Source: Promethearchaeota archaeon
GTDB lineage: Archaea > Asgardarchaeota > Lokiarchaeia > Sigyniarchaeales > SOKP01
NCBI GenBank assembly: GCA_030599585.1
Contig: JAUVNS010000006.1
Location: forward strand, 128,001-192,000
Direction of reading: 5' to 3'
DNA length: 64,000 nucleotides
The translations under genes were made by a program, and so were the position numbers. This document shows, piece after piece, positions 38,159 through 56,289 of the stretch (its first letter is position 1; each line of letters starts with the position of its first letter). Below the pieces are notes generated by a model that was given only the letters and a program-made list of their open reading frames with translations, searched no databases and was not told where the DNA came from.

Positions 38159-38734
38159 ATGGTTAGTTGTATAATTTGTCATTTGGGTATTATTGAAGGC
38201 GTAGATTCGTCTCACAATTGTCCGAATGGGCATCAAGCTCACACTGAATGTTTAAAGGAGTGGATACTTCATTCTTCTAATTGTCCAGTATGTAGAGAAC
38301 CGTATTCAAAAGAAGTGCTTGACAAGTTCAAAGATTTTATAAAACTTAGAGAGAATGAAAAGCTAGAAGCATTAGATAACGATCTCAGAATAGATGAGTT
38401 AAAAAAAATGGAAAAAATTGCCTCGAAAATGTCCTTTCTAAAATTTATCGAGTCAATCGATATTCTGATCAACGAACAAGAATATGACTACGCTTTATCA
38501 CGGTTAGACTTACATAATAACGGTAGTAACTCAATCCAAAAGGGCCAAAATATTTTATTTTTAAAAGGTAAGATTAATTACATGAGAGGGCGTTATGATC
38601 TGGCAATTAATCTATTATTTAAATTAGTAAAAGAAAAATACGACCATTCCGAAGGATTCCTTTTCCTTGGAAAGGCATATGAAGCCTTAGGTTTAGATGA
38701 TAAAGCAAAATGGGCGTATGAAAGAGTTAAATAA
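38159..38734 (+). CDS. RING-H2 finger + TPR protein (putative E3 ligase)
   Basis: CIIC...CPNGHQAHTEC...W...CPVC; C-terminal TPR helices. Confidence 0.82.
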   Translation: MVSCIICHLGIIEGVDSSHNCPNGHQAHTECLKEWILHSSNCPVCREPYSKEVLDKFKDFIKLRENEKLEALDNDLRIDELKKMEKIASKMSFLKFIESIDILINEQEYDYALSRLDLHNNGSNSIQKGQNILFLKGKINYMRGRYDLAINLLFKLVKEKYDHSEGFLFLGKAYEALGLDDKAKWAYERVK

Positions 38735-40215: not shown

Positions 40216-41115
40216 TTAACTCATAAGATTTGAAGAGTATTGCTGGACTAAATACTCGATTTTTTCAGCATCTAATTGTTCCTGTTCAAGTTCAGGGCAC
40301 ATGTGTTCAAGATGTGAAAGTAATTCGCTTAATCCTATCTCTGCTTCTTTTATATTGTCACTATCCTCTTCTCTGAGAACTATCGATCCCATTAGGTGGT
40401 CAGTTCGTTTAAAAATTATAATATTACCTTCAAGCCTAATTTGATTTAGTTCAGAGTTAAATGATTCTTTAGCGTATTGGGTAATAGCAGCAAATAAACC
40501 ACCATGCAAAATATCTTGATTGGAAGAAGACGTTAATGGTACTCCGCCTCTATCAAAAACTGTTAATGCTTTAGGAGTTGCCGCATTACCTATCCGTTTT
40601 CCAGTTAGTTTGTAATAAATTTTCGTGAATGCAGGCACAATACCAAATCCTGTTTTGCAGGAAATAGGTAGTATTTCAAATGTGTCAATTTTATGCAAGT
40701 CTAATGCTTTTATAATATCGCCCATGGAAGCTACTGGGGACATGTCAATCTTGTTTGTTAACACAATTAATGGTTTCTTCTTAAAAACTGATGATAGTTT
40801 CCATAATTCATCTTTCGCTTCGTTGAATCTTTCCCGGGCGTAAGCGTCTATCATAAAAATGACACATGAAGCGTTTGAGAGTTCTCCTAACCACATATCT
40901 CTAAAATCTTTTTGACCACCCATGTCCATAAGATTTATAGGAATACCTTGAACTTCTAGCTTAGTTAGCTCCTTTCCCATAGTTGGAGTATGCTTAACGA
41001 ATGTTCCACTTTGGAGAAAACTTACTAAAGTACTTTTTCCTGCATTATCCAACCCACAAATTACAATTTTTTTTTCTTTAGCGAAAAGTTTTTGTAAAAC
41101 ATTTTTAACGCCCAT
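40216..41115 (-). CDS. Arf-like small GTPase with C-terminal roadblock/longin-like domain
   Basis: MG + amphipathic helix, GLDNAGKST, PTMG, DMGGQ, NKID, SCK. Confidence 0.9.
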   Translation of the reverse strand: MGVKNVLQKLFAKEKKIVICGLDNAGKSTLVSFLQSGTFVKHTPTMGKELTKLEVQGIPINLMDMGGQKDFRDMWLGELSNASCVIFMIDAYARERFNEAKDELWKLSSVFKKKPLIVLTNKIDMSPVASMGDIIKALDLHKIDTFEILPISCKTGFGIVPAFTKIYYKLTGKRIGNAATPKALTVFDRGGVPLTSSSNQDILHGGLFAAITQYAKESFNSELNQIRLEGNIIIFKRTDHLMGSIVLREEDSDNIKEAEIGLSELLSHLEHMCPELEQEQLDAEKIEYLVQQYSSNLMS

Positions 41116-41153
41116 AGTCCCTCACATTATTTGTTTATATGATAATTTTTATT

Positions 41154-41223
41154 CTTAGTCCCTTATCCCTTAGACGAGAGATATCTATTAAATAGTAATA
41201 GATTTAATATTTAAACTTAAGTT
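41154..41223 (-). promoter_or_regulatory. Promoter/leader element shared with 43101-43169
   Basis: Minus strand TTTAAATA..TACTATTTAATAGAT..CTAAGGGATAA..CTAAG. Confidence 0.65.
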
Positions 41224-41265
41224 AATTAAAAGAGTTAAAGAATATCTACATAATATAGGATACTT

Positions 41266-41916
41266 TTATTTCTTAGCTGTCAGTTTTGATATCCAAGCAT
41301 TCTGAATTTTTTCTTTTTCATCTTTATCGTGGAAAAGGTGCTTATCGAAAAACTCTAAAACTGCTAAAGTGGAGATAATTATTCCGATAATTCTTAATAT
41401 CTCAGGTATGATTGGAACTTGAAGCATTTTACCTAATCCATATATTAGAAAGAATAATCCAAGTCCAAAGGCAAGCCCATTACGTGTTTTTCTACCTTCT
41501 CTTAACAATATAACTGGAATAATAAAACCGATTATTACAGCATAAGAAATAAATAATATTAGAGTATCATTTATATAAAGCCCAAAACCTATGTAGAAAC
41601 TGGCAACTAATGGAAGCCAATACAATTTCTTCAACTTCTTAAGATAGAAGAAGAAGCGCAATTGAATGCTGAAAATTAATAGGGCAATAATGTTTGATAA
41701 GCTTAATCTGATACCTAAAACCAAATCTAAATCGATGAAAAATAGATTAGTAAGCCGAAAAATTGAATTAAAAAGCATTGCAGCAAAGAAAACTATTAAT
41801 CCAAGATAAATTGATTCCTTAATCTCCAAATAAGTTCTGATAATAATCAGTATTGTAATGACGCAAAAAATCAAAAAAACAATTTCTAGTATTAAAGGGA
41901 ACAACAAATCACTCAT
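41266..41916 (-). CDS. 7TM membrane protein (type B, conserved cytoplasmic tail)
   Basis: Seven hydrophobic segments; homologous to 54328-54978; ATG at 41916 overlaps the upstream gene end. Confidence 0.8.
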   Translation of the reverse strand: MSDLLFPLILEIVFLIFCVITILIIIRTYLEIKESIYLGLIVFFAAMLFNSIFRLTNLFFIDLDLVLGIRLSLSNIIALLIFSIQLRFFFYLKKLKKLYWLPLVASFYIGFGLYINDTLILFISYAVIIGFIIPVILLREGRKTRNGLAFGLGLFFLIYGLGKMLQVPIIPEILRIIGIIISTLAVLEFFDKHLFHDKDEKEKIQNAWISKLTAKK

Positions 41917-42562
41917 TTTGCTCAACCACACCTGCTTTAAATAATTTGAAATAACCAAGGGCGAAAATTAACCCAAAAATAGGATACACTAAACTTAAAA
42001 TCTGTCCAACTATTGTTTTTTCTGCTATTAGGGTTGGAAAAACAAGAGTAGCAAAGACAGCCAACCCTAATGAGCTATTATCTTTTAATTTAAATCCAGT
42101 GGCAAATAAAAACACAACTGCTATTACTCCACCCGCAAAAACATAAGGAAGAAGAAAAATAACTATTTCAGTTACCAAAAATACAATAAACATTCCTGCG
42201 AATATAAAAAAGGATAGAAAATAGAGCGATTCCCATCGATTTATATAACTCACCATTGATAGAGCTAGAGTGATCATTAATCCTAAGCCAAAACTATAAA
42301 ACGAAAATGTGTTAATTGAGATTATTAATTCTGCGTTGAGAACATCGCTGAGCGGTGTGCTTTCATAAAGAAACTCCCATATTAGGAGCCAGGAAAGCGA
42401 TAAGAAAATGCAGAATATAATAAATCTAATCATATTAAGTTTTTTTATTTGTCTTCTTTCTAATATTACTTTTCTACCTAATATTATCGTCATAATTGGA
42501 ATAATAATAATTCCAAGAAAATTTGCCACAAGTTCTATTATATCAGCTGTTTGTCCTAACAT
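41909..42562 (-). CDS. 7TM membrane protein (type A)
   Basis: Seven hydrophobic segments; YINRWE and KDN.xLG.AVF shared with 54980-55621. Confidence 0.8.
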   Translation of the reverse strand: MLGQTADIIELVANFLGIIIIPIMTIILGRKVILERRQIKKLNMIRFIIFCIFLSLSWLLIWEFLYESTPLSDVLNAELIISINTFSFYSFGLGLMITLALSMVSYINRWESLYFLSFFIFAGMFIVFLVTEIVIFLLPYVFAGGVIAVVFLFATGFKLKDNSSLGLAVFATLVFPTLIAEKTIVGQILSLVYPIFGLIFALGYFKLFKAGVVEQNE

Positions 42563-43065
42563 TAGAAAAAACTACCTCGTACTTCAGGTCTAGATTTAAA
42601 TAATTTTGATTTTATATCTTTAAAAATGATCGATAGATCGATAGGAGCACCATCGATTAATATTAATTTTTCTTCGTTAATACCATTATAAATAGTTTGA
42701 ATATAGTCTGTTAAAACTTTTTCAGTTAGCAGGTCGCAATATTTCAATGTAGAAATAATGTTCTCTAAAACTGGTTTGTAAATATCAACATTTAACTTTT
42801 TCTTTATAAGAATAGAAATCGTTAATAAATCGTTTCTTTCTTCTTCATGTTCTATTTTGAATGCATACGACAAAACATTACACTTACTATATTTGCTTAC
42901 TGAGAAATCTCCACTATTAATACCTGTTGGAAGACATTTAGAAAGTAAGTCCTCTGATTCACTAAGAGTAGGATCAAGAGTAGGATAGGATATGACGATC
43001 TCTGGACTAGATAAATCGTAACCTCCTAATTTACATAGTATATACCGTTCTGTATTTTCAATCAT
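42562..43065 (-). CDS. uDENN/longin-like protein
   Basis: PEIVISYP...LSKCLPTG uDENN-like pattern; homologous to 55623-56114. Confidence 0.65.
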   Translation of the reverse strand: MIENTERYILCKLGGYDLSSPEIVISYPTLDPTLSESEDLLSKCLPTGINSGDFSVSKYSKCNVLSYAFKIEHEEERNDLLTISILIKKKLNVDIYKPVLENIISTLKYCDLLTEKVLTDYIQTIYNGINEEKLILIDGAPIDLSIIFKDIKSKLFKSRPEVRGSFF

Positions 43066-43100
43066 AAAAATGGTATTGATTTAATTAGAATTCCTTAAAC

Positions 43101-43169
43101 CTTAGCTATTATCCCTTAGCTAATAGCGATCTAATAAATAGTAAAAGTTTGATTATTTAAATTTAAGTT
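43101..43169 (-). promoter_or_regulatory. Promoter/leader element shared with 41154-41223
   Basis: Minus strand TTTAAATA..TACTATTTATTAGAT..CTAAGGGATAA..CTAAG. Confidence 0.65.
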
Positions 43170-43227
43170 TAGCAAACTAATAATATAATATCTAAGTCGT
43201 ATCTATAAACGGTTACTAAAAAATGAT

Positions 43228-44541
43228 CTATACTATTTTTTTTGAAGCAGTTTTGTCTAATGCGTCCTGCAGGATTTTAATTGCGCAAAATTCCCCACAC
43301 ATGCTACAAACATCATTCTCTATTTTTCCGTTTCGAAAGTGAATCTCCCGAGATAATTCGGGATCAATCGAATGCTTTATCATTCCTTCCCAGTCTAGAT
43401 TCTTTCGAGCTATATCCATTTTTAAATCCCAGTCTGATGCTCTTTTGCCGTATTTGGCTATATTTACTGCGTGAGCCGCGATTTTTGAGGCAATCACACC
43501 TCTTTTTACATCTTCCTTGTTCGGTAATGCTAAGTGTTCAGAGGGGGTAACATAACAGAGATAGTCAGCTCCCGCTAATCCCGCCATAACACCACCGATA
43601 GCGCTTACAATGTGATCGTATCCAGGAGCAATATCAGTTACTAAAGGGCCTAACACGTAAAAGGGTGCGTTATTGCATAATGATTTCATAATTTTAATAT
43701 TTCTTTCAATTTCGTTAGCGGGTATGTGACCCGGACCCTCTACTATAACTTGCACATCTTGGGTCCAAGCGTGCTTTACTAATTTCGATATTTCTATAAG
43801 TTCTTGAATCTGTGCGTAATCTGTTGAATCAAAGATACTTCCTGGTCTCATACCATCACCAAGCGAAAGTGTAAAATCATACTCCTTAGCCATATCTAGC
43901 AAATAATCGTAATTACTATTGAAGGGATTTTCTAAATCATTCTCCAAAATCCAAGCTGCTAAAAAAGTTCCTCCACGAGATACGACTCCAGCTGTTCTCG
44001 GATGGTCTTTCAGATAATTAACAATTTCTTTCGTGATGCCAACATGGATTGTAAAGAAATCGACTCCTTCTTTAGCTTGCTCTTCTATAACGTTAAATAG
44101 GTCATCTTCATCAAAATTTATTACAGCTCCTTTCTTCTCTAACGCTATTAAAGCCGATTGGTAGATAGGAACTGTCCCAATTGGGACATTTATTTCGTTT
44201 AAAATTTGTCTTCGAATGTTTTTAACATCTGCTTCAGTTACTCCAGTGCTTAAATCCATAACAGTATCTGCCCCAAACTTCACCGCTATCTTTGCTTTTT
44301 CTAATTCTTCTTCAATGTCGCATACTCGTTTACTAGAACCTACATTAGCGTTAATTTTTACGAGTAAGCCCTCTCCTATCCCCATGGGCTCAGTTTTACG
44401 TTGGTTGGATTTTGGAATAACAATACGTCCTTGTGCTATTCCCTTACGGATGAATTCTACATCAACTTGCTCTTTTTTAGCAACAAATTTCATTTCTTCA
44501 GTTATTTTACCCTCACGCGCTATTTTCATTAGTGTAGACAA
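43228..44541 (-). CDS. thiC: Phosphomethylpyrimidine synthase
   Basis: KINANVG, GADTVMDLST, VSRGG, SLGDGMRPG, EGPGH, YVTPSEHL, CSMCGEFC. Confidence 0.92.
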   Translation of the reverse strand: MSTLMKIAREGKITEEMKFVAKKEQVDVEFIRKGIAQGRIVIPKSNQRKTEPMGIGEGLLVKINANVGSSKRVCDIEEELEKAKIAVKFGADTVMDLSTGVTEADVKNIRRQILNEINVPIGTVPIYQSALIALEKKGAVINFDEDDLFNVIEEQAKEGVDFFTIHVGITKEIVNYLKDHPRTAGVVSRGGTFLAAWILENDLENPFNSNYDYLLDMAKEYDFTLSLGDGMRPGSIFDSTDYAQIQELIEISKLVKHAWTQDVQVIVEGPGHIPANEIERNIKIMKSLCNNAPFYVLGPLVTDIAPGYDHIVSAIGGVMAGLAGADYLCYVTPSEHLALPNKEDVKRGVIASKIAAHAVNIAKYGKRASDWDLKMDIARKNLDWEGMIKHSIDPELSREIHFRNGKIENDVCSMCGEFCAIKILQDALDKTASKKIV

Positions 44542-44749
44542 ATTTTTAACCCTTCTCGTAATGTCATTAAACGTAATTTATAATTTAATATCGAATGCCT
44601 AATGCAAATTAGTAATATTTGAATTAAATTGTTTTGTTTAATAAAAAATAATGAATCTCCCATCCAATAATATTTTAATAGAATTAGAAATAACTACTAT
44701 CACTAATGTTATTAAATTCCATTGAAATTCCGTTAATAGGTGAGATTAA

Positions 44750-45646
44750 ATGGTAAGTAGAGGTATGAAAAGTGTTATAAAAATTCTAAAAGAAAAGAGA
44801 GAGAAGGAGATAAAGAAAAGAGTAAAAGAGGGTCGAGCGGGAATATTAGAACTGGCACGATTAGCACCTCTTCATAAAGATACTAAATTAGAGAATGTCG
44901 ATGCTGGCGGAGTCCCCGCTGCTTGGATGATTACACCAGAGGTTGCTAAAGACCGTGCGATATTGTATTTACATGGAGGGGGGTATGTTCAAGGTTCGAT
45001 TACTTCTCATCAAGATTTAGCTCAAAGAATTTCTATAGCCTCAAAAACAAAATTGTTGATATTAGATTACCGATTAGCTCCAGAACATCCATTTCCTGCT
45101 GCTTTAGAAGATTCAGTCCGAGCTTATGAATGGTTAATTAATAATGAGGGGTATGATCCAAAAGATTTAATTATTGCTGGAGATTCTGCTGGGGGTGGGT
45201 TAACACTTGCTACGCTTGTAAAACTACGAGATCAAGAAGTTCAATTACCCGCTGCTGCGGTTTGTCTTTCACCTTGGACAGATTTAGCGTTAACTGGAGA
45301 TTCATTGAAGCTTAAAATTCACGAAGATCCCTTCGTATCCCCAGACAGATTAATGTTCTCTGCGGGATTGTATTTAGGAAAAACGGACCCAAAAAATCCA
45401 TTCGCATCACCTTTATACGCCGATTTCAAAGGGTTTCCACCGCTCTGTATTCAAGTTGGAAGCGCAGAAATTTTGCTTGACGATGCTACTCGGCTAGCAA
45501 AACGAGCTAAAAAGGCAGGTATTGAAGTACAGTTAGATATTTGGGAAGATATGATTCACGTGTTTCAAGCGTTTGCTGTTATGGCACCTGAAGGTACAGA
45601 AGGGATCAATAAAATAGGAGAATTCATTAAAAAAGTCTTTAAATAG
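44750..45646 (+). CDS. HSL-family alpha/beta hydrolase (esterase)
   Basis: HGGG, DYRLAPEHPFPA, GDSAGG, HVF. Confidence 0.93.
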   Translation: MVSRGMKSVIKILKEKREKEIKKRVKEGRAGILELARLAPLHKDTKLENVDAGGVPAAWMITPEVAKDRAILYLHGGGYVQGSITSHQDLAQRISIASKTKLLILDYRLAPEHPFPAALEDSVRAYEWLINNEGYDPKDLIIAGDSAGGGLTLATLVKLRDQEVQLPAAAVCLSPWTDLALTGDSLKLKIHEDPFVSPDRLMFSAGLYLGKTDPKNPFASPLYADFKGFPPLCIQVGSAEILLDDATRLAKRAKKAGIEVQLDIWEDMIHVFQAFAVMAPEGTEGINKIGEFIKKVFK

Positions 45647-45672
45647 AAATAGAAAAAAAAAGAATTTAAAGT

Positions 45673-46011
45673 TTATACTTCTGGTGCAGTCATACCTAAG
45701 ATTTTATAAGCTTCTGTGAAATCCAAAAAGATTTCTGCTTTATATTTAAGTCCATCAATTTTTGAAGCCATGAATAAGTTTTGTTGAGTTGTCCGCTTTA
45801 GGGCTTCGCTTTCCATGCCTTTCATTATCTCACCAATACCATAAACTAAAAGAGTTCCATCTTCGTCGGAACCGACAGCTATGGCGATAGTTTTTTCAAT
45901 TGTTTTATCAGGGGGATTATCTTTTAAAAAATCAACATATGCTTTTGCTACTTTATTTGATTGATCAGGTGGAAACCAAACTCGAGATACTAGGAGTGTT
46001 ATTATAATCAC
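45673..46011 (-). CDS. Hypothetical protein
   Basis: Clean ORF with no recognised motif. Confidence 0.7.
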   Translation of the reverse strand: MIIITLLVSRVWFPPDQSNKVAKAYVDFLKDNPPDKTIEKTIAIAVGSDEDGTLLVYGIGEIMKGMESEALKRTTQQNLFMASKIDGLKYKAEIFLDFTEAYKILGMTAPEV

Positions 46012-46114
46012 ATCGTTTTTTTAATTAAATTAGATTTCGTTACAAATCTAAATTAGATGATGAGACATATAAATCTTCACTTTTTTGTCAGAAGGAAGGA
46101 TTAAGGATTAATAA

Positions 46115-46582
46115 TTAATAACCTACTTTCAATTGTTTTAAAAGCTCTATTAATGATACGGACAACTTATAATTTTTTAATTCGTCAAAAAGCACAAATT
46201 TAGCGTCTAGGGCATCGGAATCGGGTATAGGAAGTTGGTCCTCATCACCTTCAATTTGTTCTACAAAATAATTTATTAATACATAATGGTATTCAAGTTT
46301 ACCCTTATCGTCATACATAATTTTGTCTATGATACCCGCTAATTTAGTTACTCGCACTTTAAAACCGGTTTCTTCAAAACCCTCTCTTTCTGCAGCACTT
46401 TCAATCTTTTCGCCCAGATCCAAGTGTCCTCCAGGAATTGACCAATAACCGGCATCGGGTTCATATTTCCTTTTCACTAACAATAAAGAATTATTCCGGG
46501 TTAGCAATACGCCAACACCTATTAAAGGAACAATGGGATAGCGTCGTAATTCAAAAGGTTTTAATCTTTCTTTATTTGTCAT
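46115..46582 (-). CDS. NUDIX hydrolase
   Basis: PGGHLDLGEKIESAAEREGFEETG Nudix box. Confidence 0.93.
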   Translation of the reverse strand: MTNKERLKPFELRRYPIVPLIGVGVLLTRNNSLLLVKRKYEPDAGYWSIPGGHLDLGEKIESAAEREGFEETGFKVRVTKLAGIIDKIMYDDKGKLEYHYVLINYFVEQIEGDEDQLPIPDSDALDAKFVLFDELKNYKLSVSLIELLKQLKVGY

Positions 46583-46670
46583 TATTAATAAGCTCTAAAT
46601 TGCATTAATTATTATTACTCTTTAAAGGTTTCAAAGATTTAAGATTAATTAAAAATACGAAAAGATTATT

Positions 46671-47162
46671 ATGGTTAGACCAAATTACTGGCCCATAAAT
46701 GGAATGCCTCATAAATCTGAACCATTTACTTGGATTGTGAGAGGGAAAATAGCAGCAAGTTGGTGGCCAGACCCGTCTGTAATCAAAAAATTTAAAGAAC
46801 AAAGTATATCTGTTGTTATAAACTGTTCAGAATTTGAAAACAGCAAAGAAATTAGAAATTCTTTTAAATTTTATCATATCAACGTTCCAGATTACGGATT
46901 ACCTACAGAAACTCAAATCGAAACTTTCTTAGCTATATGTGATAAACATGGGTTAAAGAATGAATCAATTGTAGTTCATTGTGTTGCAGGTTGTGGAAGA
47001 ACTGGACAATTTATAGTCGCTTGGGGAGCAAAGAACGGTTATATAGCAAAATCAATGGATCCCGTAAAATGGATAAGAAAGTACAGATCATGCAGCCTTG
47101 AGACCAAAGAACAAATGAATTTTGCTCGAAAAATGGCAAAAAAATATCAAATGATTCGATAA
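46671..47162 (+). CDS. Dual-specificity/protein-tyrosine phosphatase
   Basis: VPDYGLP acid loop and HCVAGCGRT (CX5R). Confidence 0.92.
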   Translation: MVRPNYWPINGMPHKSEPFTWIVRGKIAASWWPDPSVIKKFKEQSISVVINCSEFENSKEIRNSFKFYHINVPDYGLPTETQIETFLAICDKHGLKNESIVVHCVAGCGRTGQFIVAWGAKNGYIAKSMDPVKWIRKYRSCSLETKEQMNFARKMAKKYQMIR

Positions 47163-47273
47163 TTTTATTATGTAAAGTATTTATTGTACAAATTTTATTA
47201 TTTAGTAAATTTATGTTGCAATAAATCTAATTCTCTAAAATTAGATTAACAATTCTAACCGATAAGCGCTCTC

Positions 47274-48425
47274 ATGAACAAATCTGATTATGTTTATATG
47301 ATTTTAGATAATATACTGGTCTATAGTATTAATCTACCTCCAGAATTTCAGAACAATGGATTAGATGATCATCTTAATAATTTCGATGAGAACTATGTTA
47401 AAATCATTGCTGGATTTAATAAAAGCTTCTTGGAGCATTTCTTAACGGTTACGAAAGGGAAATCTCAGAAGGATGTAGCCGGTTTATTAAAGAAAATGGA
47501 AAAAATCGCCTATATGGTTGGTCCTATTGGGAATCTTAGCTATTTAGGAAGCGATCAAGTAGATCATCTTCTAACGAAAATAAATGATCTCAAGATCGAT
47601 GAAATAATCGAAGAAAAAATTAGTTTGCTAGCGGATGACCAATTGAGGCAGCAATTTGGTGGAAGCAATTACAACGCTTCAGAAGCATTAGAAAACCAAT
47701 TAGCAAGCGCTGCGTTTTTTTTAATGAACATGGGATATTCCCGAGAAGAAATTCAAGAAAAATTTAATGAAGTACGACAAGATCCTTCGAGATTAGATAC
47801 CTTGTTTAATACACAACAAAGAGAAATTTATAATTTACCAATGGAACTACAACAACCGTCCTCAACCTCCCCATCTAGGCCACAACAAACTTCGATAGAT
47901 CAAAGCAATGGTTTAAACGCATCAATTGCTCAACATATACAAACAATTCATCAAGAAATTACAGGAGAAAGAGCGGAAAAAGTTAAGGTTATTCTTGAAG
48001 AGATAAAAGCATATGTTAAAGATGACCTCTCCGAACTTCAAGAAAAAGTCTTCAGGCAAATGCACCCTGATAGATTAAAGCGCGCTCTGAAAATATTAAA
48101 AACAACAAAAAGAAAATCTAAAAGAATGAAACTTTATATTGAATGGTTTACAGATAGCTTGCTTTTATCAAAAATAGAGCTGAAGGTAGAACACTGGCAA
48201 GTCTCATCATCTGCAGACCACTCAAGTGCTGGAGTTTACACAGCCGGAATAGATTTTTCACGATATGACCCCATTATACGGGATTTTTCAGACGCTAAAT
48301 TAACTAAAGTTGTTAACATTAGTAGACGCATTTTACAGAAGCCATCTAAAAAAGCGATTCAGAAACTTGGTCAAGACCTCATAAGTGAAACTGGTTTCGA
48401 TGAACACCTTTATTTTACGGATTAG
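47274..48425 (+). CDS. Hypothetical protein with UBA-like motif and low-complexity linker
   Basis: LMNMGYSREEI followed by a Q/S/P-rich linker. Confidence 0.65.
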   Translation: MNKSDYVYMILDNILVYSINLPPEFQNNGLDDHLNNFDENYVKIIAGFNKSFLEHFLTVTKGKSQKDVAGLLKKMEKIAYMVGPIGNLSYLGSDQVDHLLTKINDLKIDEIIEEKISLLADDQLRQQFGGSNYNASEALENQLASAAFFLMNMGYSREEIQEKFNEVRQDPSRLDTLFNTQQREIYNLPMELQQPSSTSPSRPQQTSIDQSNGLNASIAQHIQTIHQEITGERAEKVKVILEEIKAYVKDDLSELQEKVFRQMHPDRLKRALKILKTTKRKSKRMKLYIEWFTDSLLLSKIELKVEHWQVSSSADHSSAGVYTAGIDFSRYDPIIRDFSDAKLTKVVNISRRILQKPSKKAIQKLGQDLISETGFDEHLYFTD

Positions 48426-48539
48426 CTAGTATTAGAAACGTTGTTTATCTTTTTTTCTCCAAACAAGTATAAAATTTTTATTTATCCTTTTTAATATTAA
48501 TAATAAAACATTGAAATATATCAAAGAGAAGATTAGAAA

Positions 48540-48743
48540 GTGGGATTTTTAGAAAAATTAAAGGTTTTGTTGCTGGCTTTAAGTAGCGTATTCGTTTTTA
48601 TAGCGATCGCCGGGACAATTATTGCAAATTCTTTCTCTGCTTGAGGTAGTAGAATGAGCTATTATGACGGAATCTCAGGTATGGGTTATATAATTTCTGC
48701 ATTTTTAGTTGTGCTCTATTTAATTATCCCTGATAGAAAATAA
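48540..48743 (+). other. Small two-TM ORF with in-frame TGA (selenoprotein candidate, pseudogene, or two micro-ORFs)
   Basis: GTG...MGFLEKLKVLLLALSSVFVFIAIAGTIIANSFSA*GSRMSYYDGISGMGYIISAFLVVLYLIIPDRK-TAA; TGA at 48642-48644. Confidence 0.45.
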
Positions 48744-48756
48744 TTATCTTTTATAG

Positions 48757-48793
48757 ATGAGTCCATTAAAAAAAATTATAGTTAATGGAGGAT
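48757..48793 (+). promoter_or_regulatory. SECIS-like hairpin candidate
   Basis: ATGA-G / TCCATTAA:TTAATGGA stem / A-rich loop / G-GA-T. Confidence 0.35.
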
Positions 48794-48880
48794 ACTTCCC
48801 GCGAGGAAGAAGAAGATTTGAATAAATAAAATGGTATTTCTAGAGGAAATCCTCGGGTACTAGAGAATTTACTGGAAGTT

Positions 48881-50500
48881 TTAACTTTGCATTTTGTAGG
48901 CAGTTTTGCCCCTAATAATGGTTTCCACAACTTGAATATTTCTAATTTCATCATTTGGAACTTCCAGGGGATTCCTATTTAATATTACAAAATCAGCGAG
49001 TTTTCCTATTTCTATACTTCCCTTAATATTTTCTTCAAAAGCACCATAAGCGGCATTGATAGTATATGTTTTTAAAGCTTCCTCAATACTTATGCGTTGT
49101 TCAGGAATAAAATCGTTTCTATGAACTAGAGCATGCAATCCCATTATAACGCTAGGGTCTTCAACGGGACAATCAGAACCTGAGATTAAAGTAACTCCAG
49201 CATCTAATATTGATTTCATGGGATAAGTATCCTTAAGTCGTTCCTTTCCTAAACGTTTCTCTAACCAATTAAATTCTGAATTGATGAAGGGAGGCTGACA
49301 TGAGGCAATAATCTTGTATTTTGCCATATCTTTCAATACATCTTGAGTTAAAATTGAAGCGTGTTCTATCCGATGTCTATGATCCTCTCGAGGTGATTCA
49401 TCCAACAATCGTTTATAGAGATCTACTGCTATCCGATTTCCTTTATCACCGATCGCGTGAATACAAATTTGAAATTCATTATCATGAGCAACTTTCATCT
49501 TCTGGTACAAGTCTTCAGTATCAACGACACAGAAACCACATTTTTCAGGTGCATCCGTAAAAGGTTCATACATGCAAGCTGTCTTGGCCCCGAACGTACC
49601 GTCAAGGAAAAACTTTGCACAACCTAATTTAAACTGACTGTCTGGCTTACCACCATCAAGAGGAGGTTTTTTAAGTCTTAATAACTTCTTAGGTCTTTCT
49701 GTATTCACCATGAGATACCAGTTATGTAAGATATCTGACTGGATTGATTTTAATAACGGTATCTCGACAACTCCAAAATCTCCAAATTCTCCTCCAGCAT
49801 CGGAATGTAAAATCCCGTGGAGAGAGGTTAATCCTTGAGATGCTAGATAATTAAAGGCTTTAGTTGTTGCGTTTTTTAATTCTACTCCTTTAGGAAACGA
49901 AACTTTATTTAGTATAGGTGAGACCGCTGTTTCAGTCAAAATTCCTGTTAATTCTCCTTTCTCGTTTTTCCTAATTTCTCCCCCTTCAGGAACGGGAGTG
50001 TTTTCGTCTATTCCCGCAATATCCAAGGCTTTCGTATTAGCAATTCCAATATGCCCGTCATATCTCAGCACAAAGATAGGGTGTTCAGGACACGCATCAT
50101 CGAGATCCCATCGAGTAGGCAAAACAGGATCATCAAATTTCTCTTCGGATAAATTCAAAGCTATTGTTAATTGATCTTTTGATTTACTCTCAACTGCTTC
50201 CTTTAAAACTTCTTTCAACTCACTAAGACTTGTTACTTCAGACACATTTGGACTCACTTGGTAGAAAACGAATAATATGGGATGTAAATGACAATCGATA
50301 AACCCGGGCAACAAGCTATTCCCTTCTAAATCTACAGAAATATAACCTTGTCCTAACATTTCTTTTACTGTATTCAATTTTCCAGTAGATATGATCTTTT
50401 CATTTAATATACCTATGGCTTCTATGCGTGGTTCTTTTTCATTCATCGTTATGATGGGACCGTTGAAAAACAGTGTATAGACCTTTGGTTCAGGCGGCAT
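48881..50500 (-). CDS. Amidohydrolase 3 family (YtcJ-like)
   Basis: PGFIDCHLH, KFFLDG, IHAIGD, HRIEH, GSDCP, GKLADF. Confidence 0.92.
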   Translation of the reverse strand: MPPEPKVYTLFFNGPIITMNEKEPRIEAIGILNEKIISTGKLNTVKEMLGQGYISVDLEGNSLLPGFIDCHLHPILFVFYQVSPNVSEVTSLSELKEVLKEAVESKSKDQLTIALNLSEEKFDDPVLPTRWDLDDACPEHPIFVLRYDGHIGIANTKALDIAGIDENTPVPEGGEIRKNEKGELTGILTETAVSPILNKVSFPKGVELKNATTKAFNYLASQGLTSLHGILHSDAGGEFGDFGVVEIPLLKSIQSDILHNWYLMVNTERPKKLLRLKKPPLDGGKPDSQFKLGCAKFFLDGTFGAKTACMYEPFTDAPEKCGFCVVDTEDLYQKMKVAHDNEFQICIHAIGDKGNRIAVDLYKRLLDESPREDHRHRIEHASILTQDVLKDMAKYKIIASCQPPFINSEFNWLEKRLGKERLKDTYPMKSILDAGVTLISGSDCPVEDPSVIMGLHALVHRNDFIPEQRISIEEALKTYTINAAYGAFEENIKGSIEIGKLADFVILNRNPLEVPNDEIRNIQVVETIIRGKTAYKMQS

Positions 50501-50683
50501 GTTTATTATTCTCTTAACTTAAAGGTGAAAATTACATATTATGAATTTAAAATGATACATAAACCTTGATAAAACCGATTTCACTGAGATTTTAGTATAT
50601 GTGTGAAAAAGTTTAAAATAATTCAATCAATTTTTAGGAATATAAGTAAATAAATTTAGCAAACCTAATAAGGCGAATAGAAT

Positions 50684-53041
50684 ATGGTAAAGAAATCTGA
50701 CTTAAAGAAACTTAATTCCATCATGCAAGAAGGGAATGAATTTAAAAACCTCAGAGAATACAATAATGCTGTCGAAAAGTATTTGGAAGCTCTAAGATTT
50801 GTTGAAGAGAGAGTTAAAGAACCAGAGGAGCGCGTAGATGAAACAAGAAACATTAAATCCCAAATTGACCAAGTATATTCTGTAAAAATCATTGATATCA
50901 TTGACGAGGCAAGGAATTTCATAGAAAAGGAAGATTTTGATTCCGCCTTCAACACTTTCGACGAAGCGGCGAGAATTGCAGACAAAATAGTAGACAAAGA
51001 TATGAACGATTATGAAGTGAAAGAGATTAGTTATCTAATAAATAAAACAAAAATCGAAGAATCTCTCTTTCAAGCCGTCTTAGTGAAGAATAAGCAGGAG
51101 TTAGATAAAGCCATAAGCATGTTAAACGACACATTAGACGCTGCGAAAGATTTTTACATGGAAGATCTAGAAGATCAAATGATTAAAAAAATTGAAGATA
51201 CTATTAATCAAACTTACTCGTCAAAGGCTTCTACTGTAATGGAAAGAGCTAACCATTTTAAAAGTGATGGTAAAATTGATGACGCCCTTGAAGAATACCA
51301 GCTCGCTTTGGAATTAGTAGATAATTATTTTGATTCAGACTTAAAAAACACAGATAAACAGAATTTAATAAATTTGATTAATCAATTATACTCAGAAAAA
51401 ATAAATACAAGCATGGAAGCTGGTAAAAAACTATTTGAAGAAAGCACTTTTGAGGACGCTGCTGAAAAATTCGAAGAAGCTATAAGTATCTCTAAAAAAA
51501 TGTACGATACGGATTACAAGAAATCAGAAATACAGAGAGTCAATTCAATGGCATCAGTAGTGCTAAATCCTATCTATTTGGATAAAATTTATCCTCTCTT
51601 TAAAAAAGGTAAAGAACTAATAAGAAAGGATAACTTTGAAGAAGATATAGTTGTAGTGAATGAGGCATTAGACCTATTTGACAAGTCCTTAGAGTTGACA
51701 GAAAAAATGGCTGATTCAAACGAAAAGATCGAAGTTTTAAGTGAATTAACTGATTATATTAAAAAAACATGCAAAATTCGAATTAAATTTATTAAAGAAA
51801 AATCCATTCAAAAAATTGGGCAACGAGACTACGAAAAGGCTATTAATGATCTATATGCGGCAATTAGTGTAGCAAAAAGATTACCAATCTCTGGCGAAAC
51901 TAACGAAGATTTAGAAGATTTAAAAAATACAGTCAACAAAGTGTATTTAGCTCAAATAGAGGAAGTCGTTAGAGAGGGAAATGTTAAATTGAGGAACAAA
52001 AATTACGACGAAGCTATTAAAACCTTTAATAAAGCATTAGAAATGACTAATAAAATGTACCTCACTCAAGAAATGGAAGAAGAAATTAATAGAATAAAAG
52101 GTTTGGTATATCAAGCAGAATTAAAAGACTTAGTAGATCGTGGGGATTTATCTGAAGAACTCCAGAAATTTGAAAAGGAGTTAGATAAACTAAATAAAAA
52201 AATGGATTACGCACAAACAATAGATGACCCTACGCGTAGATTTCAAGAGATGGAGCAGATCAAGAAAACTATTGACGAGGTATTTTATTCCAAAATTAAA
52301 CTATTGGTCGAACAGGGCGTCCAACTAGCAGAAAGTGAAAATTTTAGTGAATCCTTTAAAAACTTTGAAAGCGCAATTAACATTAACGACTCAATAAAAA
52401 GTCCAGAATTTAAAAATCGTATCGCTATAAAATACGAATATAGATTGAAGTTGATAGATAAAGCAAAATTAGAAATTGAAAGGAAAATTTATGATACAGC
52501 AATTCTAGACTGTAATAAAGCTATAGAATTAGACAGTACACATATCGACGCATATTTTTATATCGGGATCGCAAATAACGAGAAAAAAGAATATAACAAA
52601 GCGATTGAGTACTTCAAAAAAGTGATCGATCTCAATCCGAACCACGCAAAGGCTTGGAACCACATGGGTTTTAGTTATGAAAAATTAGATCAATTTGATC
52701 AGGCAATAGATTCTTATAAAATAGCAGTTGGGTTTGATTCCACTTATACTTTAGCCCATTATAATTTGGCAAACGCGTATAAACACGAGAAACAATATGA
52801 AATAGCAATTGAATCCTATAAAATAGCAACAGAAATAGATCCGAACTATGCGCTAGCTTGGCTTTTTATGGGTTATACCTATTTAGATAAGAACGATTAC
52901 CATTCAGCACTTCAAAATCTCGAGAAAGCAATTGAAATTAACCCGAATCTTGGAAAAGAGATTAAATCCTCTATTGATACCATTAAGGATTCGGTAGGAA
53001 AGCTTCAAAAAGGTTTGTTAGAGAAGTTCAATAATAAATAA
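50684..53041 (+). CDS. Large TPR/alpha-solenoid protein
   Basis: Helical repeats throughout; canonical TPRs in the C-terminal ~200 aa. Confidence 0.88.
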   Translation: MVKKSDLKKLNSIMQEGNEFKNLREYNNAVEKYLEALRFVEERVKEPEERVDETRNIKSQIDQVYSVKIIDIIDEARNFIEKEDFDSAFNTFDEAARIADKIVDKDMNDYEVKEISYLINKTKIEESLFQAVLVKNKQELDKAISMLNDTLDAAKDFYMEDLEDQMIKKIEDTINQTYSSKASTVMERANHFKSDGKIDDALEEYQLALELVDNYFDSDLKNTDKQNLINLINQLYSEKINTSMEAGKKLFEESTFEDAAEKFEEAISISKKMYDTDYKKSEIQRVNSMASVVLNPIYLDKIYPLFKKGKELIRKDNFEEDIVVVNEALDLFDKSLELTEKMADSNEKIEVLSELTDYIKKTCKIRIKFIKEKSIQKIGQRDYEKAINDLYAAISVAKRLPISGETNEDLEDLKNTVNKVYLAQIEEVVREGNVKLRNKNYDEAIKTFNKALEMTNKMYLTQEMEEEINRIKGLVYQAELKDLVDRGDLSEELQKFEKELDKLNKKMDYAQTIDDPTRRFQEMEQIKKTIDEVFYSKIKLLVEQGVQLAESENFSESFKNFESAININDSIKSPEFKNRIAIKYEYRLKLIDKAKLEIERKIYDTAILDCNKAIELDSTHIDAYFYIGIANNEKKEYNKAIEYFKKVIDLNPNHAKAWNHMGFSYEKLDQFDQAIDSYKIAVGFDSTYTLAHYNLANAYKHEKQYEIAIESYKIATEIDPNYALAWLFMGYTYLDKNDYHSALQNLEKAIEINPNLGKEIKSSIDTIKDSVGKLQKGLLEKFNNK

Positions 53042-53160
53042 CTTTTTTCCATATATTATTTATTCTCATTTTGTGAAAAAAGCTATAATAAACACTAATT
53101 TAACGATTAAGTAGTTTATTAAATAAAAAGATTAGAAAAGAAAAAAAACTAAAAACAGAT

Positions 53161-54057
53161 TTATAACAGATTTGAAGCGTATTGATCTACCAAATACTCG
53201 ATTTTGCTAGAATCTAATTGATCTTTCTCGAGCTCAGGGCACATGTGCTCTAAATGGAGCAATAAATCATTTAATCCTGATTCTACTTCCGGGATATCTA
53301 TGTTATCGCTTTCGTTAACAACTATTGAGCCCATAAGATGTTTCGATCGTTTGAAGATGATAAGATGTCCACCCATTTTAAGTTGATCAAGTTCTGAATT
53401 AAAAGATTCCCTCACAAAATTATGGATGGCGGTAAACAACCCCCCTTGTAATATATCTTCATTTGAGGATGATGTTAAAGGAATTCCTCCCTGATCAAAA
53501 ACGGTAATCGCTCTAAGGTTTGTCTTTTGGGTAAGATGCTTACCAGTTAATTTATAATAGATCTTCATAAATGCTTTTACAATTCCATAGCCTGTTTTAC
53601 ATGAAATCGGTAATACTTCAAAAGAGGGTAAATCTTTCAAATTCAAAGCTTCGATAATTTCACTAATTGAAGCAACAGGCTGAAGATCGTATTTATTTGC
53701 TAGTATTATCAGAGGTTTCTTCTTAAAAATAGAAGATAACTTCCATAGCTCGTCTCTAGCTTCGTTGAATCTTTCTCGAGCGTATGCGTCGATCATAAAT
53801 ATTACACACTCAGCAGTCGAGGCTTCACCAATCCATAAATTTCTGAAGTCTTTTTGACCACCCATATCCATAACATTAATACGAATTCCTTGTACTTCAA
53901 TTTGGGATAATTCTTTACCCATTGTGGGTGCATGTTCCATAAATGTACCATTCTGTAGAAAGGAAATCATGGTGGTTTTGCCAGCACTGTCAAGTCCGGT
54001 TATAACAATCTTCTTTTCTTTGGTAAATACTCGTTTTAAAATATCTTTAACTCCCAT
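53161..54057 (-). CDS. Arf-like small GTPase with C-terminal roadblock/longin-like domain (paralogue)
   Basis: GLDSAGKTT, PTMG, DMGGQ, NKYD, SCK. Confidence 0.9.
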   Translation of the reverse strand: MGVKDILKRVFTKEKKIVITGLDSAGKTTMISFLQNGTFMEHAPTMGKELSQIEVQGIRINVMDMGGQKDFRNLWIGEASTAECVIFMIDAYARERFNEARDELWKLSSIFKKKPLIILANKYDLQPVASISEIIEALNLKDLPSFEVLPISCKTGYGIVKAFMKIYYKLTGKHLTQKTNLRAITVFDQGGIPLTSSSNEDILQGGLFTAIHNFVRESFNSELDQLKMGGHLIIFKRSKHLMGSIVVNESDNIDIPEVESGLNDLLLHLEHMCPELEKDQLDSSKIEYLVDQYASNLL

Positions 54058-54327
54058 TTTACTCAGTCTTAGGTTATTTTACATATATATATAATAATAA
54101 AATTTATATCTTGAAACTATAATAAAACTTTTTAGTTAAAAACGAAAGGATTTATGCTTTTGTTTGTTATGTTGCTACAGAATTATTTTTTTATAGAATT
54201 CATTTTCAGATTTTTCAGTAGAACAAAAAGAATTTACTATAAAAGTGCAAAGTTAAAACTAGATTAAATTATTGTTGATTTCCCTGATTAGATTAAAATT
54301 AAAAGAAAAAAAGAAAAAAAATCGTTA

Positions 54328-54978
54328 TTATTCCTTTACTACCAATTTTGCAATCCAGGTTCCCATTATCTTCTGTTCTTCTTCGACATTGACAAATACA
54401 TATTTCTCATAAAAACCTTTTGTTCCTAATAAGAGTGCCAACATAGCAACTATTCTAAAACTAATAAAAACAATTTCAGCCTGAAATAGCTGCCCAAGTC
54501 CCCATATAAAAAAGAACAATCCCATACCAATAGCTAACCCATTACGACTTTTTCTTCCGTCTTTTATGAGAAAGTAGGAAGAACCATAACTTACAATCAT
54601 CGCATAAATTATAAAAGGCATTGGCGAGTCAACTAAAACTCTTCCGATTGCCAGGTAAAAACTGCAAAATAAGGGAAGAGTGTATAGTTTAGGTAAATTT
54701 TTTAAATAGAACATGAACTCCAATTGAATCGTAAATAATATGAACCCGAGAATCATTCCAATTGTGATTCCTCCAGCTACTTTGATATCTATATCCAAGT
54801 CAAACGAGTATATTGCAATATCGATAGTGGATCTAAACAATACGGCTACAACATAAATTAATGCCGCCAATAACATTCGGTTTTTATTCATCTTCCAGTG
54901 TTTTAATGTCGTAAGGATAGCAATCAATCCCATAGTAAAGTAAACGAGTTCCATAATCAATAAGCCAATTTCCGCCAT
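54328..54978 (-). CDS. 7TM membrane protein (type B)
   Basis: IQL.F.FYLK, G.K.RNGLA.G.GLFF, tail KI..WI.KL. Confidence 0.8.
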   Translation of the reverse strand: MAEIGLLIMELVYFTMGLIAILTTLKHWKMNKNRMLLAALIYVVAVLFRSTIDIAIYSFDLDIDIKVAGGITIGMILGFILFTIQLEFMFYLKNLPKLYTLPLFCSFYLAIGRVLVDSPMPFIIYAMIVSYGSSYFLIKDGRKSRNGLAIGMGLFFFIWGLGQLFQAEIVFISFRIVAMLALLLGTKGFYEKYVFVNVEEEQKIMGTWIAKLVVKE

Positions 54979-54979
54979 T

Positions 54980-55621
54980 TTAAGTTTCTACCTCCTGTTT
55001 AAATATTCTAAACAATCCCAATGAGAAGATAACAATAAAAACAACATAACTTATAATGATTATTCTTGATAGCAATGCTTCGTGTATGAACTGAGTGCTA
55101 AATGCTAGGGTGAAAAAGACTGCTATACCAAGAGCGCCATTGTCCTTCATGCGGATCGCCGTAAAGTATAAAAAGATAATACTTGCTGCTCCTGCAATTT
55201 GTGTGTAATCCTCAAGCCAAGCGTAAAATCCGGTAAATATATAGAGGAAGAACATCCCTGCGAAAAAGAAAATAGCTGAGAAGTGTAAAACTTCCCATCT
55301 ATTAATATAAAATATCAAAGTAAGGCCCAGTGTCACCATGATGGCTACGGAGGTATTATAAATACCAAATTCAGCGCTAAATATTTCATCCATAAAGGGT
55401 GTAGTGAACGGTGTATTGCTCACAAGAAACTCGGTGATAGCTAGTATCGAGAAGTTAAGAAAAGTACTAAAAATAATTAATCGTATAATATTGTATTTTC
55501 CCGCTTCTTTCTTGTCTTTTTGAAGCTTCCAGCCTAAAATTAACGTCGCCATAGGTATGAATATTGCGCTCGAAAGATTAGCCACAATTCCAAGACTAGA
55601 TATAATTAAATCTTCTGCCAT
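54980..55621 (-). CDS. 7TM membrane protein (type A)
   Basis: Homologous to 41909-42562. Confidence 0.8.
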   Translation of the reverse strand: MAEDLIISSLGIVANLSSAIFIPMATLILGWKLQKDKKEAGKYNIIRLIIFSTFLNFSILAITEFLVSNTPFTTPFMDEIFSAEFGIYNTSVAIMVTLGLTLIFYINRWEVLHFSAIFFFAGMFFLYIFTGFYAWLEDYTQIAGAASIIFLYFTAIRMKDNGALGIAVFFTLAFSTQFIHEALLSRIIIISYVVFIVIFSLGLFRIFKQEVET

Positions 55622-55622
55622 T

Positions 55623-56114
55623 TTACAAAAAACTTCCTTTTAGTTTTATTTCTGGTTTAAGTATTTTAGATTTAATTTCTTTAAAAATAGTAGAAAGATC
55701 AATTAAGATGTCATTTATAGTAATATTTTTTTCTTGGTTAATTCCTTCAAAGATGATTCTTTGATTCTTAGTTAATATATGCTCGTTTAAAAGCCCATTC
55801 TGTTCTAAAGTATCTATTAAACTTTGAAGCACAGGCTTATAAATTTCTACTTTGTCTTTTTTATGAAGGAGTACCGATAATGAGAAGAGATCATCTCTAG
55901 CAGCACTTTGATTTACCCTGAAAATATACGATAAAACACTGTATTTGCGGTATTTATCGATAGTGAAATCTCCTGTTTTGGAGCCTACTGGAAAACATTT
56001 TGATAGGATTTCTGACTCTACTGACTTTCCTAACGATGGATAGGAGCTAATAATCTCCGGATTAGAATTCACATATCCTCCGAGTTTACAAATTACACTA
56101 TAATCTGAAGCCAT
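55623..56114 (-). CDS. uDENN/longin-like protein (paralogue)
   Basis: CKLGGY, PEIISSYP, LSKCFPVG, R-D-D loop. Confidence 0.65.
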   Translation of the reverse strand: MASDYSVICKLGGYVNSNPEIISSYPSLGKSVESEILSKCFPVGSKTGDFTIDKYRKYSVLSYIFRVNQSAARDDLFSLSVLLHKKDKVEIYKPVLQSLIDTLEQNGLLNEHILTKNQRIIFEGINQEKNITINDILIDLSTIFKEIKSKILKPEIKLKGSFL

Positions 56115-56289
56115 TATAATCACATGTCTTTTATTTTAAAGAAAATAAAAATAAATTATAATAACTACGTAAAAGTGTGGTAATAAAAATGGGAAGTTTT
56201 TCGGAATTTTATGTTCTGTTAGCACAAATGAACTTTTTTACACACAAATTGATTTTACTTTGATGTGAAATTATGTCTTTTAAAGTTTA

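Follow-up and report, generated by a model that had tools for sequence, protein, structure and literature searches.

A duplicated Lokiarchaeial gene cassette joins an Arf-family GTPase to an NPRL2-like longin and two seven-helix membrane proteins: a candidate membrane-bound GTPase switch

A stretch of 64,000 nucleotides (nt) from a Promethearchaeota archaeon (assembly GCA_030599585.1, contig JAUVNS010000006.1, positions 128,001 to 192,000; the whole stretch is called the window below) carries, twice, a cassette of four genes that encode a longin-domain protein (lng), two seven-transmembrane (7TM) proteins (tmA and tmB) and an Arf-family GTPase. We favor the reading, with a probability of about 0.55, that these four genes encode one membrane-bound Arf-type switch whose longin is a GTPase-activating protein (GAP) working through an arginine finger, and the switch is probably built from parts that eukaryotes use in nutrient sensing and trafficking. 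The eight genes, in window coordinates and with lengths in amino acids (aa), are:

42562-43065, minus strand: lng1, a 167-aa longin of NPRL2-like type, in which an arginine (Arg77) is invariant and the C-terminal tail, G-S-F-F, is conserved
41909-42562, minus strand: tmA1, a 217-aa seven-helix membrane protein, N-terminus predicted outside and C-terminus inside
41266-41916 (from the ATG), minus strand: tmB1, 216 aa, a paralogue of tmA with a conserved, predicted cytoplasmic tail K-I..W-I.K
40216-41115, minus strand: GTPase1, 299 aa, an Arf-family G domain (residues 1-170) and a putative longin/roadblock-like C-terminal domain of ~128 aa
55623-56114 (from the ATG), minus strand: lng2, 163 aa, 48% identical to lng1
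54980-55621, minus strand: tmA2, 39% identical to tmA1
54328-54978, minus strand: tmB2, 37% identical to tmB1
53161-54057, minus strand: GTPase2, 68% identical to GTPase1, Pfam Arf E 1.4e-34, C-terminal domain present

The original prediction, made from the letters of the DNA, was that the same four genes occur twice in the same order and on the same strand, and both the open reading frame calls and BLASTP between the copies bear this out (E 2e-51 for lng, 3e-46 for tmA, 1e-45 for tmB and 3e-164 for the GTPase); the duplication is real and far beyond chance. The first three genes are indeed coupled, as had been claimed: in copy 1, lng1 and tmA1 overlap by 1 nt and tmA1 and tmB1 by 8 nt, while in copy 2 the corresponding boundaries are two 1-nt gaps, and tmB and the GTPase gene are 150 nt (copy 1) or 270 nt (copy 2) apart. 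Two starts have alternatives: the tmB1 frame stays open as far as a TTG at 41958, the ATG at 41916 being the one that matches the starts of its orthologues, and lng2 has a GTG at 56123, 5' of its ATG. The GTPase pair is very similar and the 7TM pairs have diverged, also as described, and this divergence had been read as a sign of "diversifying receptors." Special diversifying selection is not needed to explain it, since the 7TM proteins are the least conserved parts of the cassette between orthologues too (30-45% identity, as against 60-75% for the GTPase). A third copy was not found in the source genome (4.85 Mb in 52 contigs).

The four-gene linkage is conserved in other genomes. In Lokiarchaeia the genes stand together wherever a contig end does not truncate the locus, and the set of four is complete in 18 of the 20 larger loci and in 43-46 loci overall; the most distant relatives of tmA, drawn from 1.84 billion proteins, have the same four-gene arrangement. 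Of 400 sampled genomes of the phylum, 47 have tmA, and these belong to a single order; the carriers are Promethearchaeota (Lokiarchaeia), Promethearchaeum sp. and Sigynarchaeum, and the cassette is present in the cultured Ca. Lokiarchaeum ossiferum B35, whose genome is complete (CP104013.1, ~5.353 Mb). Most loci read lng-tmA-tmB-GTPase, others GTPase-lng-tmA-tmB, and whole cassettes have been duplicated in tandem (G275), divergently (G151) and at separate sites (G273, G248 and the source genome; G and L numbers are our handles for genomes and loci). Among 41 other genomes of the source genus, tmA was found in 22 and lng in 21, the same genomes bar one. The genes flanking the cassette are not conserved beyond close relatives. 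Comparative genomics strongly supports the view that the four genes are one functional unit, and the self-contained module that had been proposed is recovered as one conserved unit across loci.

In some Promethearchaeum sp. metagenome-assembled genomes (MAGs), extra GTPase-lng pairs without adjoining 7TM genes lie beside a full cassette (L053:57-1341, L091 and L092), which suggests that the GTPase-longin pair is the tightest unit. Several close relatives with a Lokiarchaeial-type cassette bear the NCBI labels "Hodarchaeota" or "Hermodarchaeota" (L055, L058, L065, L078 and L088); since at least L058 (= G257) and L065 (= G260) fall in the source genome's own genus, such submitter labels are unreliable as a guide to distribution.

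Profile searches agree with the assignment of the GTPase to the Arf family. Residues 1-170 of GTPase1 match Pfam Arf (PF00025) at E 1.9e-34 and 119 bits (cut-off 22.3), with Ras and Roc at ~42 bits, Gtr1_RagA at 26.3 bits (cut-off 22) and SRPRB at 26.1 bits (cut-off 25), and the top matches of a GTPase profile in the PDB are GerdArfR1 (8oun_A, 8e-39), HodArfR1, Arf1 and Arl3. A Rag G domain was considered and rejected, as Gtr1_RagA scores far under Arf and no Rag chain is among the best 60 PDB matches. The motifs GLD..GK(S/T)T, PT(M/L)G, D(M/L)GGQ, NK.D and S.KTG (G1-G5) are conserved in 22 GTPase sequences, as is the switch-II glutamine, Gln68. By sequence, the cassette GTPase is an Arf-family protein with an intact nucleotide site. 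Arf-family GTPases are usually regarded as the nearest family to G-alpha, and they depend on an arginine provided in trans. In the cassette GTPase the N-terminal helix is moderately amphipathic (median hydrophobic moment 0.6, vs. 0.35 when shuffled), and the related Asgard ArfR proteins are reported to bind membrane in their GTP form via their N-terminal helix (bioRxiv 10.1101/2024.02.28.582541).

From its conservation pattern, the GTPase's C-terminal portion (128 aa) appears to have the strand and helix succession of the longin/roadblock superfamily. The original prediction had pointed to the roadblock domain that Rag GTPases have at this place; the matches here are weak throughout (dynein roadblock, E 0.4; Fuz/Intu longin, E 0.02-0.03), and they lean toward a longin, as does a 468-aa neighbor in another Asgard family with a domain that matches both this one (E 9e-9) and Intu_longin_1 (E 1e-3). 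No relation between the C-terminal domain and lng was found by hhalign. Such G domain fusions have been named "Rag-like GTPase-RB" (Tran et al., 2024); the G domain here is Arf by sequence. In two cassettes of our family f13, a protein of 450-468 aa with a domain of this type lies just 3' of the 7TM gene (L141:389-1795 and L142:627-1985), so that what is fused in Lokiarchaeia may be a separate neighbor elsewhere. At L035:6484-6936, where the genes have the permuted order GTPase-lng-tmA-tmB, the next gene after tmB encodes a separate 150-aa protein with 31% identity to the C-terminal domain of the GTPase (residues 164-295).

Homologues of lng that are named in databases are all "hypothetical protein." The AlphaFold2 model, built from 29 orthologues (predicted local distance difference test score, pLDDT, 87.9), has the longin order of strand-strand-helix-strand-strand-strand-helix and then a small helix/hairpin extension. 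Compared by VIA-align, it matches human NPRL2 best (Z 14.3, root-mean-square deviation [rmsd] 3.4 Å, 157 of 167 residues, with model 3-167 on NPRL2 5-174), followed by yeast Npr2 (13.0), a Lokiarchaeial longin (10.7), DENND1A/B (9.0-9.4), FLCN (9.2), Lst4 and the sigma-adaptins (~9) and SMCR8/C9orf72 (7.6-7.8); zeta-COP, in the range of about 8-9 together with sigma-adaptin, and the longin domains of Mon1-Ccz1, Fuzzy-Inturned and SRX are also among the fold matches. Foldseek likewise ranks NPRL2/Npr2 of GATOR1/SEAC first (E 7e-6 to 4e-4). As modeled, lng has the fold of a longin closest to the catalytic GAP longins, with NPRL2 above all non-NPRL2 longins (Z 10.7 or less). The uDENN/longin label of the original prediction thus stands as to longin and falls as to uDENN: Pfam uDENN gives E 0.087 in one of the 29 members, and DENND1 is well under NPRL2 in the fold comparison.

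Arg77 of lng, which is in the strand 4-5 loop, does not vary in 29 Lokiarchaeial and 29 Asgard-wide sequences; across the Asgard-wide family, which is only ~20% identical, the invariant columns are Pro28, Pro46 and Arg77. The collinear aligned ranges put it near NPRL2 Arg78. Arginine fingers in longin loops are known from NPRL2 (Arg78), FLCN (Arg164) and SMCR8 (Arg147), which act as GAPs on RagA, RagC and Arf1, respectively. Many non-Lokiarchaeial Asgard members of the lng family have G-P or G-L before strand 2; a GP motif in this place is reported to be specific to GAP longins, as are Asgard longins with both the GP motif and an arginine finger to exist (PMC12290439, 2025). The C-terminal tail of lng differs by type of cassette, G-S-F-F in Lokiarchaeia and D-L-W-K in other Asgard groups, and a type-specific tail would fit docking on a type-specific partner. 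A search for longer proteins with a fused lng found none, a negative of little weight.

The two membrane proteins are seven-helix paralogues. The AlphaFold2 model of tmA (pLDDT 91) has seven transmembrane (TM) helices with short outer loops and no extracellular domain, and the tmA and tmB profiles align by hhalign with a probability of 96.6% (E 4.7e-10, 171 columns). A resemblance between them had been noted around TM5-TM6; BLASTP does not detect it, while by hhalign it extends over most of their length. Basic residues are clustered on one side (lysine plus arginine counts of 11.3 on the predicted cytoplasmic side vs. 0.7 outside for tmA and 15.3 vs. 1.0 for tmB), which predicts an N-terminus outside and a C-terminus inside. 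The predicted cytoplasmic face is also the more conserved (3.14 vs. 2.10 bits for tmA, 2.85 vs. 1.91 bits for tmB); the outer loops, which are variable, contain none of the top 20 positions by conservation, and the conserved motifs are found where TM3, TM5-TM6 and TM7 end on the cytoplasmic side and in the tails. The motifs YINRWE, KDN, RNGLA and the tail WI.K, already picked out in the two copies, proved to be conserved columns in alignments of 27-29 orthologues.

The tmA model was also compared by VIA, independently of Foldseek, with 48,161 chains, and the 50 best matches, which were the ones inspected, are all either G-protein-coupled receptors (GPCRs) or folds designed to be GPCR-like, with no transporter or enzyme among them. 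The best is the 7TM domain of the adhesion GPCR ADGRL3 (8jmt_A; Z 15.5, rmsd 3.5 Å, 186 residues). The model suggests a GPCR-like helix arrangement, not homology. Neither tmA nor tmB has any Pfam or NCBIfam match, to a GPCR family or otherwise; the tmA profile finds, in 1.84 billion representative proteins, 95 clusters of 52-281 aa that are all tmA-type, and the sequence relatives of both proteins lie within Asgard-type metagenomic proteins only. Two other identities were set aside. A microbial rhodopsin was rejected as there is no conserved lysine in helix 7 (184-201), the conserved lysine coming after the helix on the cytoplasmic side. An ion-coupled transporter or enzyme is unlikely, as inspection by eye of the invariant and at least 90% conserved columns of tmA and tmB showed no charged residue inside the predicted helices and no transporter chain is among the top 50 fold matches.

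Relatives found with the lng profile occur in 78 of 400 Asgard genomes (our families f13, f16, f17 and f18 included), a single Heimdallarchaeota MAG having as many as nine copies, and homology to the Lokiarchaeial proteins is supported by both a hidden Markov model search (E 6e-17) and hhalign (probability 97%). On these profile matches the lng family extends to genomes labeled Heimdallarchaeota and Hodarchaeales, which is new here. In 12 of 19 sampled non-Lokiarchaeial loci, lng is followed first by an Arf-like GTPase that consists of the G domain only (174-206 aa) and then by one 6-8TM protein (268-321 aa), co-directional and with short gaps; in 4 more of the 19, lng is followed by one or two multi-pass proteins. 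The three-gene cassettes are at:

L154:2119-4004 (= L125:3436-5321)
L126:3464-5475
L100:3489-5424
L139-L155

Their 6-8TM partner forms a family of its own, with a conserved G-W-x-x-P-x-W ... K-x-W tail, and the named members are hypothetical proteins of Heimdallarchaeota or Hodarchaeales. Compared with tmA and tmB by hhalign, this family gives a probability of <5%, only a similar K.W(I/F) tail aligning, and for the pair of TM proteins next to lng in L143 no relation to tmA/tmB is detectable either. The components are now more sharply identified, as an NPRL2-like longin, an ArfR-type GTPase and 7TM paralogues with a predicted GPCR-like fold, and the module is wider than was first seen.

In the arrangement that we favor, tmA and tmB, probably as a heterodimer, would form the membrane part, with their conserved cytoplasmic loops and tails holding or regulating the soluble parts. 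The GTPase would be the cycling switch, with its N-terminal helix, nucleotide site, catalytic glutamine and C-terminal longin/roadblock-like domain, and the NPRL2-like lng would switch it off by inserting Arg77 as an arginine finger. We infer the GAP activity of lng and the physical contacts among the four proteins, and the 7TM pair may be a ligand sensor, an exchange factor or a mere anchor. A prediction of the complex of all four proteins, in which lng was set as the partner, scored 0.35 vs. 0.19 in a control in which the GTPase was replaced, and supports no call either way.

Several observations weigh against this proposal. There is no link at the sequence level from lng to NPRL2, FLCN or SMCR8: lng has no Pfam or NCBIfam match, none of its 29 members matches Pfam NPR2 (PF06218) or Folliculin even at E 5, profiles made from the Lokiarchaeial and from the Asgard-wide alignment had no match in the PDB, and a scan of 301 Asgard genomes with PF06218 yielded no match that passed the cut-off. 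The equivalence of Arg77 and NPRL2 Arg78 in the model comes from collinear ranges, not from residue-level superposition, and the Lokiarchaeial members themselves have S-N-P-E before strand 2, with the proline in at least 90% and the glycine absent. Most longin domains, moreover, are exchange factors or platforms, not GAPs. On the membrane side, the N-terminal helix of the GTPase stands out from its own shuffles in only 1 of 22 sequences, the fold match of tmA (Z 15.5) falls within the range open to unrelated helical bundles, which can reach about Z 14 by chance, and Foldseek gives E 0.02 or higher only. Finally, some half of the genomes of the genus lack the cassette, several of these being 100% complete, and it is therefore dispensable.

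The same complex could also be assembled with lng as an exchange factor or docking platform, in which case Arg77 would be a structural or interface residue. Longin modules have such roles in TRAPP, DENN and Mon1-Ccz1, as does the SRX domain with SR-beta, and the DENND1, Mon1-Ccz1, Fuzzy-Inturned and SRX longins among the fold matches of lng, the weak Fuz/Intu matches of the GTPase C-terminal domain, the GTPase score just above the SRPRB cut-off and the lack of a sequence match between lng and GAP longins all fit this arrangement. We nevertheless consider it unlikely, if deserving of serious attention: NPRL2 is clearly the best fold match across all 167 residues (Z 14.3 vs. 9-10), the arginine in the strand 4-5 loop has stayed invariant in a family that has otherwise diverged so far, and the G-P/G-L before strand 2 of non-Lokiarchaeial lng corresponds to a motif reported to be specific to GAP longins (PMC12290439).

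A receptor system, as the original prediction had it, would make the 7TM pair a ligand-activated exchange factor for the GTPase, with lng as the off-switch. The exclusively GPCR-fold matches of tmA in the top 50, the N-out, C-in orientation, the motifs at the inner ends of TM3, TM5-TM6 and TM7 and the variable outer loops speak for such a system. Against it stand the lack of sequence homology to any GPCR family, the confinement of tmA profile matches to its own 95 clusters, the short outer loops without an extracellular domain, a tmA Z score in the range of unrelated helical bundles, and a Heimdall-type 7TM partner that has no detectable homology to tmA or tmB; on balance we find this version doubtful. 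No more credit is due to its broader form, in which the cassette would be a surviving archaeal receptor-coupled G-protein signaling system, and the 7TM/G-alpha logic and the lysosomal longin-GAP systems of eukaryotic nutrient sensing (GATOR1-Rag, FLCN-Rag and C9orf72/SMCR8-Arf) would both go back to a single ancestral module of Asgard archaea. Here GPCR-fold 7TM proteins would gate exchange by ligand or membrane state, and an NPRL2-type longin would be the arginine-finger GAP.

It is less probable again that the cassette is a proto-coat or trafficking module, in which the membrane-inserted, GTP-bound GTPase recruits lng and sorts or clusters the 7TM proteins or remodels the membrane. Arf1 does recruit the sigma and zeta longin subunits of the AP and COPI coats, and both sigma-adaptin and zeta-COP longins appear among the fold matches of lng. 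The reported membrane binding of related Asgard ArfR in GTP form (bioRxiv 10.1101/2024.02.28.582541) is a further point in its favor, but no other coat-like gene is conserved beside the cassette loci, and the adaptin-type longins score well below NPRL2. That the genes are neighbors by shared ancestry alone, with no joint function, is very improbable: many of the loci come from one order and hence are not independent, but the linkage survives permutation of the gene order, relocation, repeated duplication of the whole cassette and replacement of the 7TM partner in other Asgard families, and holds at the limits of detectable homology, while conservation of the flanking genes stops at close relatives. 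A defense system was also considered and rejected, as PADLOC gave no match for lng, tmA or tmB and P-loop noise only for the GTPase.

The closest eukaryotic parallels are informative both where they fit and where they do not. GATOR1 consists of NPRL2, NPRL3 and DEPDC5 and acts on Rag GTPases at the lysosome. The lng model is best on the N-terminal 174 residues of human NPRL2 and has the invariant longin-loop arginine, its likely client GTPase has an extra, apparently longin/roadblock-like C-terminal domain, and there is a tie to multi-pass membrane proteins in both; the cassette, however, has no sequence similarity to GATOR1, no NPRL3 or DEPDC5 partner and no TOR pathway, its GTPase is Arf and not Rag (119 vs. 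26 bits), and there is one GTPase per cassette instead of a Rag heterodimer. C9orf72-SMCR8-WDR41 is a longin GAP for Arf GTPases that is recruited to lysosomes by the 7TM PQ-loop transporter PQLC2. It shares with the cassette the combination of a longin-type arginine-finger GAP (here a candidate), an Arf-family GTPase and a seven-helix protein, but its fold match to lng is weaker, the cassette has neither DENN modules nor WDR41, and the tmA model matches the GPCR fold, with no PQ-loop or transporter chain in its top 50 matches.

Closer in lineage, the solved protein nearest to the cassette G domain is GerdArfR1 (8OUN), one of the Asgard ArfR proteins together with HodArfR1, and by the motifs described for them the Asgard "FLCN/SMCR8-type" longins resemble lng, with its invariant arginine and, outside Lokiarchaeia, its G-P/G-L before strand 2. 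In the parts of that literature available to us the two were published separately and without gene neighborhood, whereas the cassette links GTPase, longin and 7TM genes. A GPCR with its heterotrimeric G protein has in common with the cassette seven helices predicted N-out/C-in, a helix arrangement that in the tmA model may be GPCR-like, conserved cytoplasmic motifs and, in the cassette, an adjoining Arf-family GTPase. The cassette differs in its lack of GPCR sequence homology, of the G-alpha helical domain and of beta/gamma subunits, in having two 7TM paralogues and in a coupling that is putative. MglA-MglB is likewise a case of a prokaryotic small GTPase gene adjoining a candidate GAP of the longin/roadblock superfamily, but MglB, a roadblock dimer, lacks an arginine finger, MglA is not Arf-like and that system has no membrane proteins.

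In copy 1 the upstream regions of the lng operon and of the GTPase gene contain matching elements of ~120 nt with a TATA-like box:

43074-43194, minus strand: promoter/leader element upstream of lng1, including the box TTTAAATA
41128-41248, minus strand: matching promoter/leader element upstream of GTPase1, by local alignment with the lng1 element

Their local alignment scores 49, vs. 13.8 +/- 2.3 in shuffles, and none of 300 shuffles reaches 49; the lng operon and the GTPase gene of copy 1 thus appear to share a promoter/leader, which would fit coupled expression. The copy 1 element has no match in the upstream regions of copy 2 (54058-54327 and 56115-56289), and the mutual similarity of those two regions (score 23 vs. 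15.5 shuffled, reached by 3 of 300 shuffles) was too weak for a promoter repeat to be retained there.

The two copies lie in different settings. Copy 2, between genes for an FAD (flavin adenine dinucleotide) oxidoreductase and a tetratricopeptide repeat (TPR) protein, occupies a position common to about 25 related genomes. Copy 1 lies between thiDN and thiC (a ThiD/ThiN fusion upstream and ThiC downstream, at 38761-40167 and 43228-44541 of the window), a placement among thiamine genes that one sister genome alone shares and that looks like a secondary insertion. The TPR protein (785 aa, window 50684-53041, convergent to GTPase2) has a weak MIT-domain match, and its synteny with the cassette holds across some 22 related genomes and not in more distant ones. 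Also in the window are a 521-aa protein (36491-38056) with a Ras/Rab-like G domain at 169-333 and extra N- and C-terminal regions, and a 191-aa protein (38159-38734) that has a RING finger at its N-terminus (zf-RING_2, E 7e-7), a ubiquitin-system domain like those of eukaryotes.

Asgard genomes are rich in small GTPases, longins and roadblock proteins. NPRL2-like longins, Arf-related GTPases and 7TM proteins each belong to known classes of Asgard "eukaryotic signature" proteins, and the portions of Liu et al. that we could consult describe NPRL2-like longins and other operons and not lng-tmA-tmB-GTPase. The ArfR and AArf papers contain no neighborhood analysis, GTPase genes of MK-D1 are stated as a rule not to share operons with genes for longin or roadblock proteins (Tran et al., 2024), and the published view is that the pairing of GTPases and regulators in Asgard archaea cannot be read from gene order (PMC10933270). 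The original prediction had supposed the operon to be undescribed, and full-text searches, which do not reach subscription-only papers and supplements, found no published description. Which GTPase is the client of the Asgard arginine-finger longins is posed as an explicit question in PMC12290439 (2025). The cassette offers a concrete and testable candidate, a specific Arf-family GTPase tied to specific seven-helix proteins, and since it is present in the cultured Ca. L. ossiferum, its expression, localization and biochemistry are within reach. Heimdallarchaeota and Hodarchaeales are the groups placed nearest to eukaryotes, and because the simpler pairing occurs in genomes that bear these labels, the module may be old enough to bear on the origin of GTPase-controlled membrane signaling.

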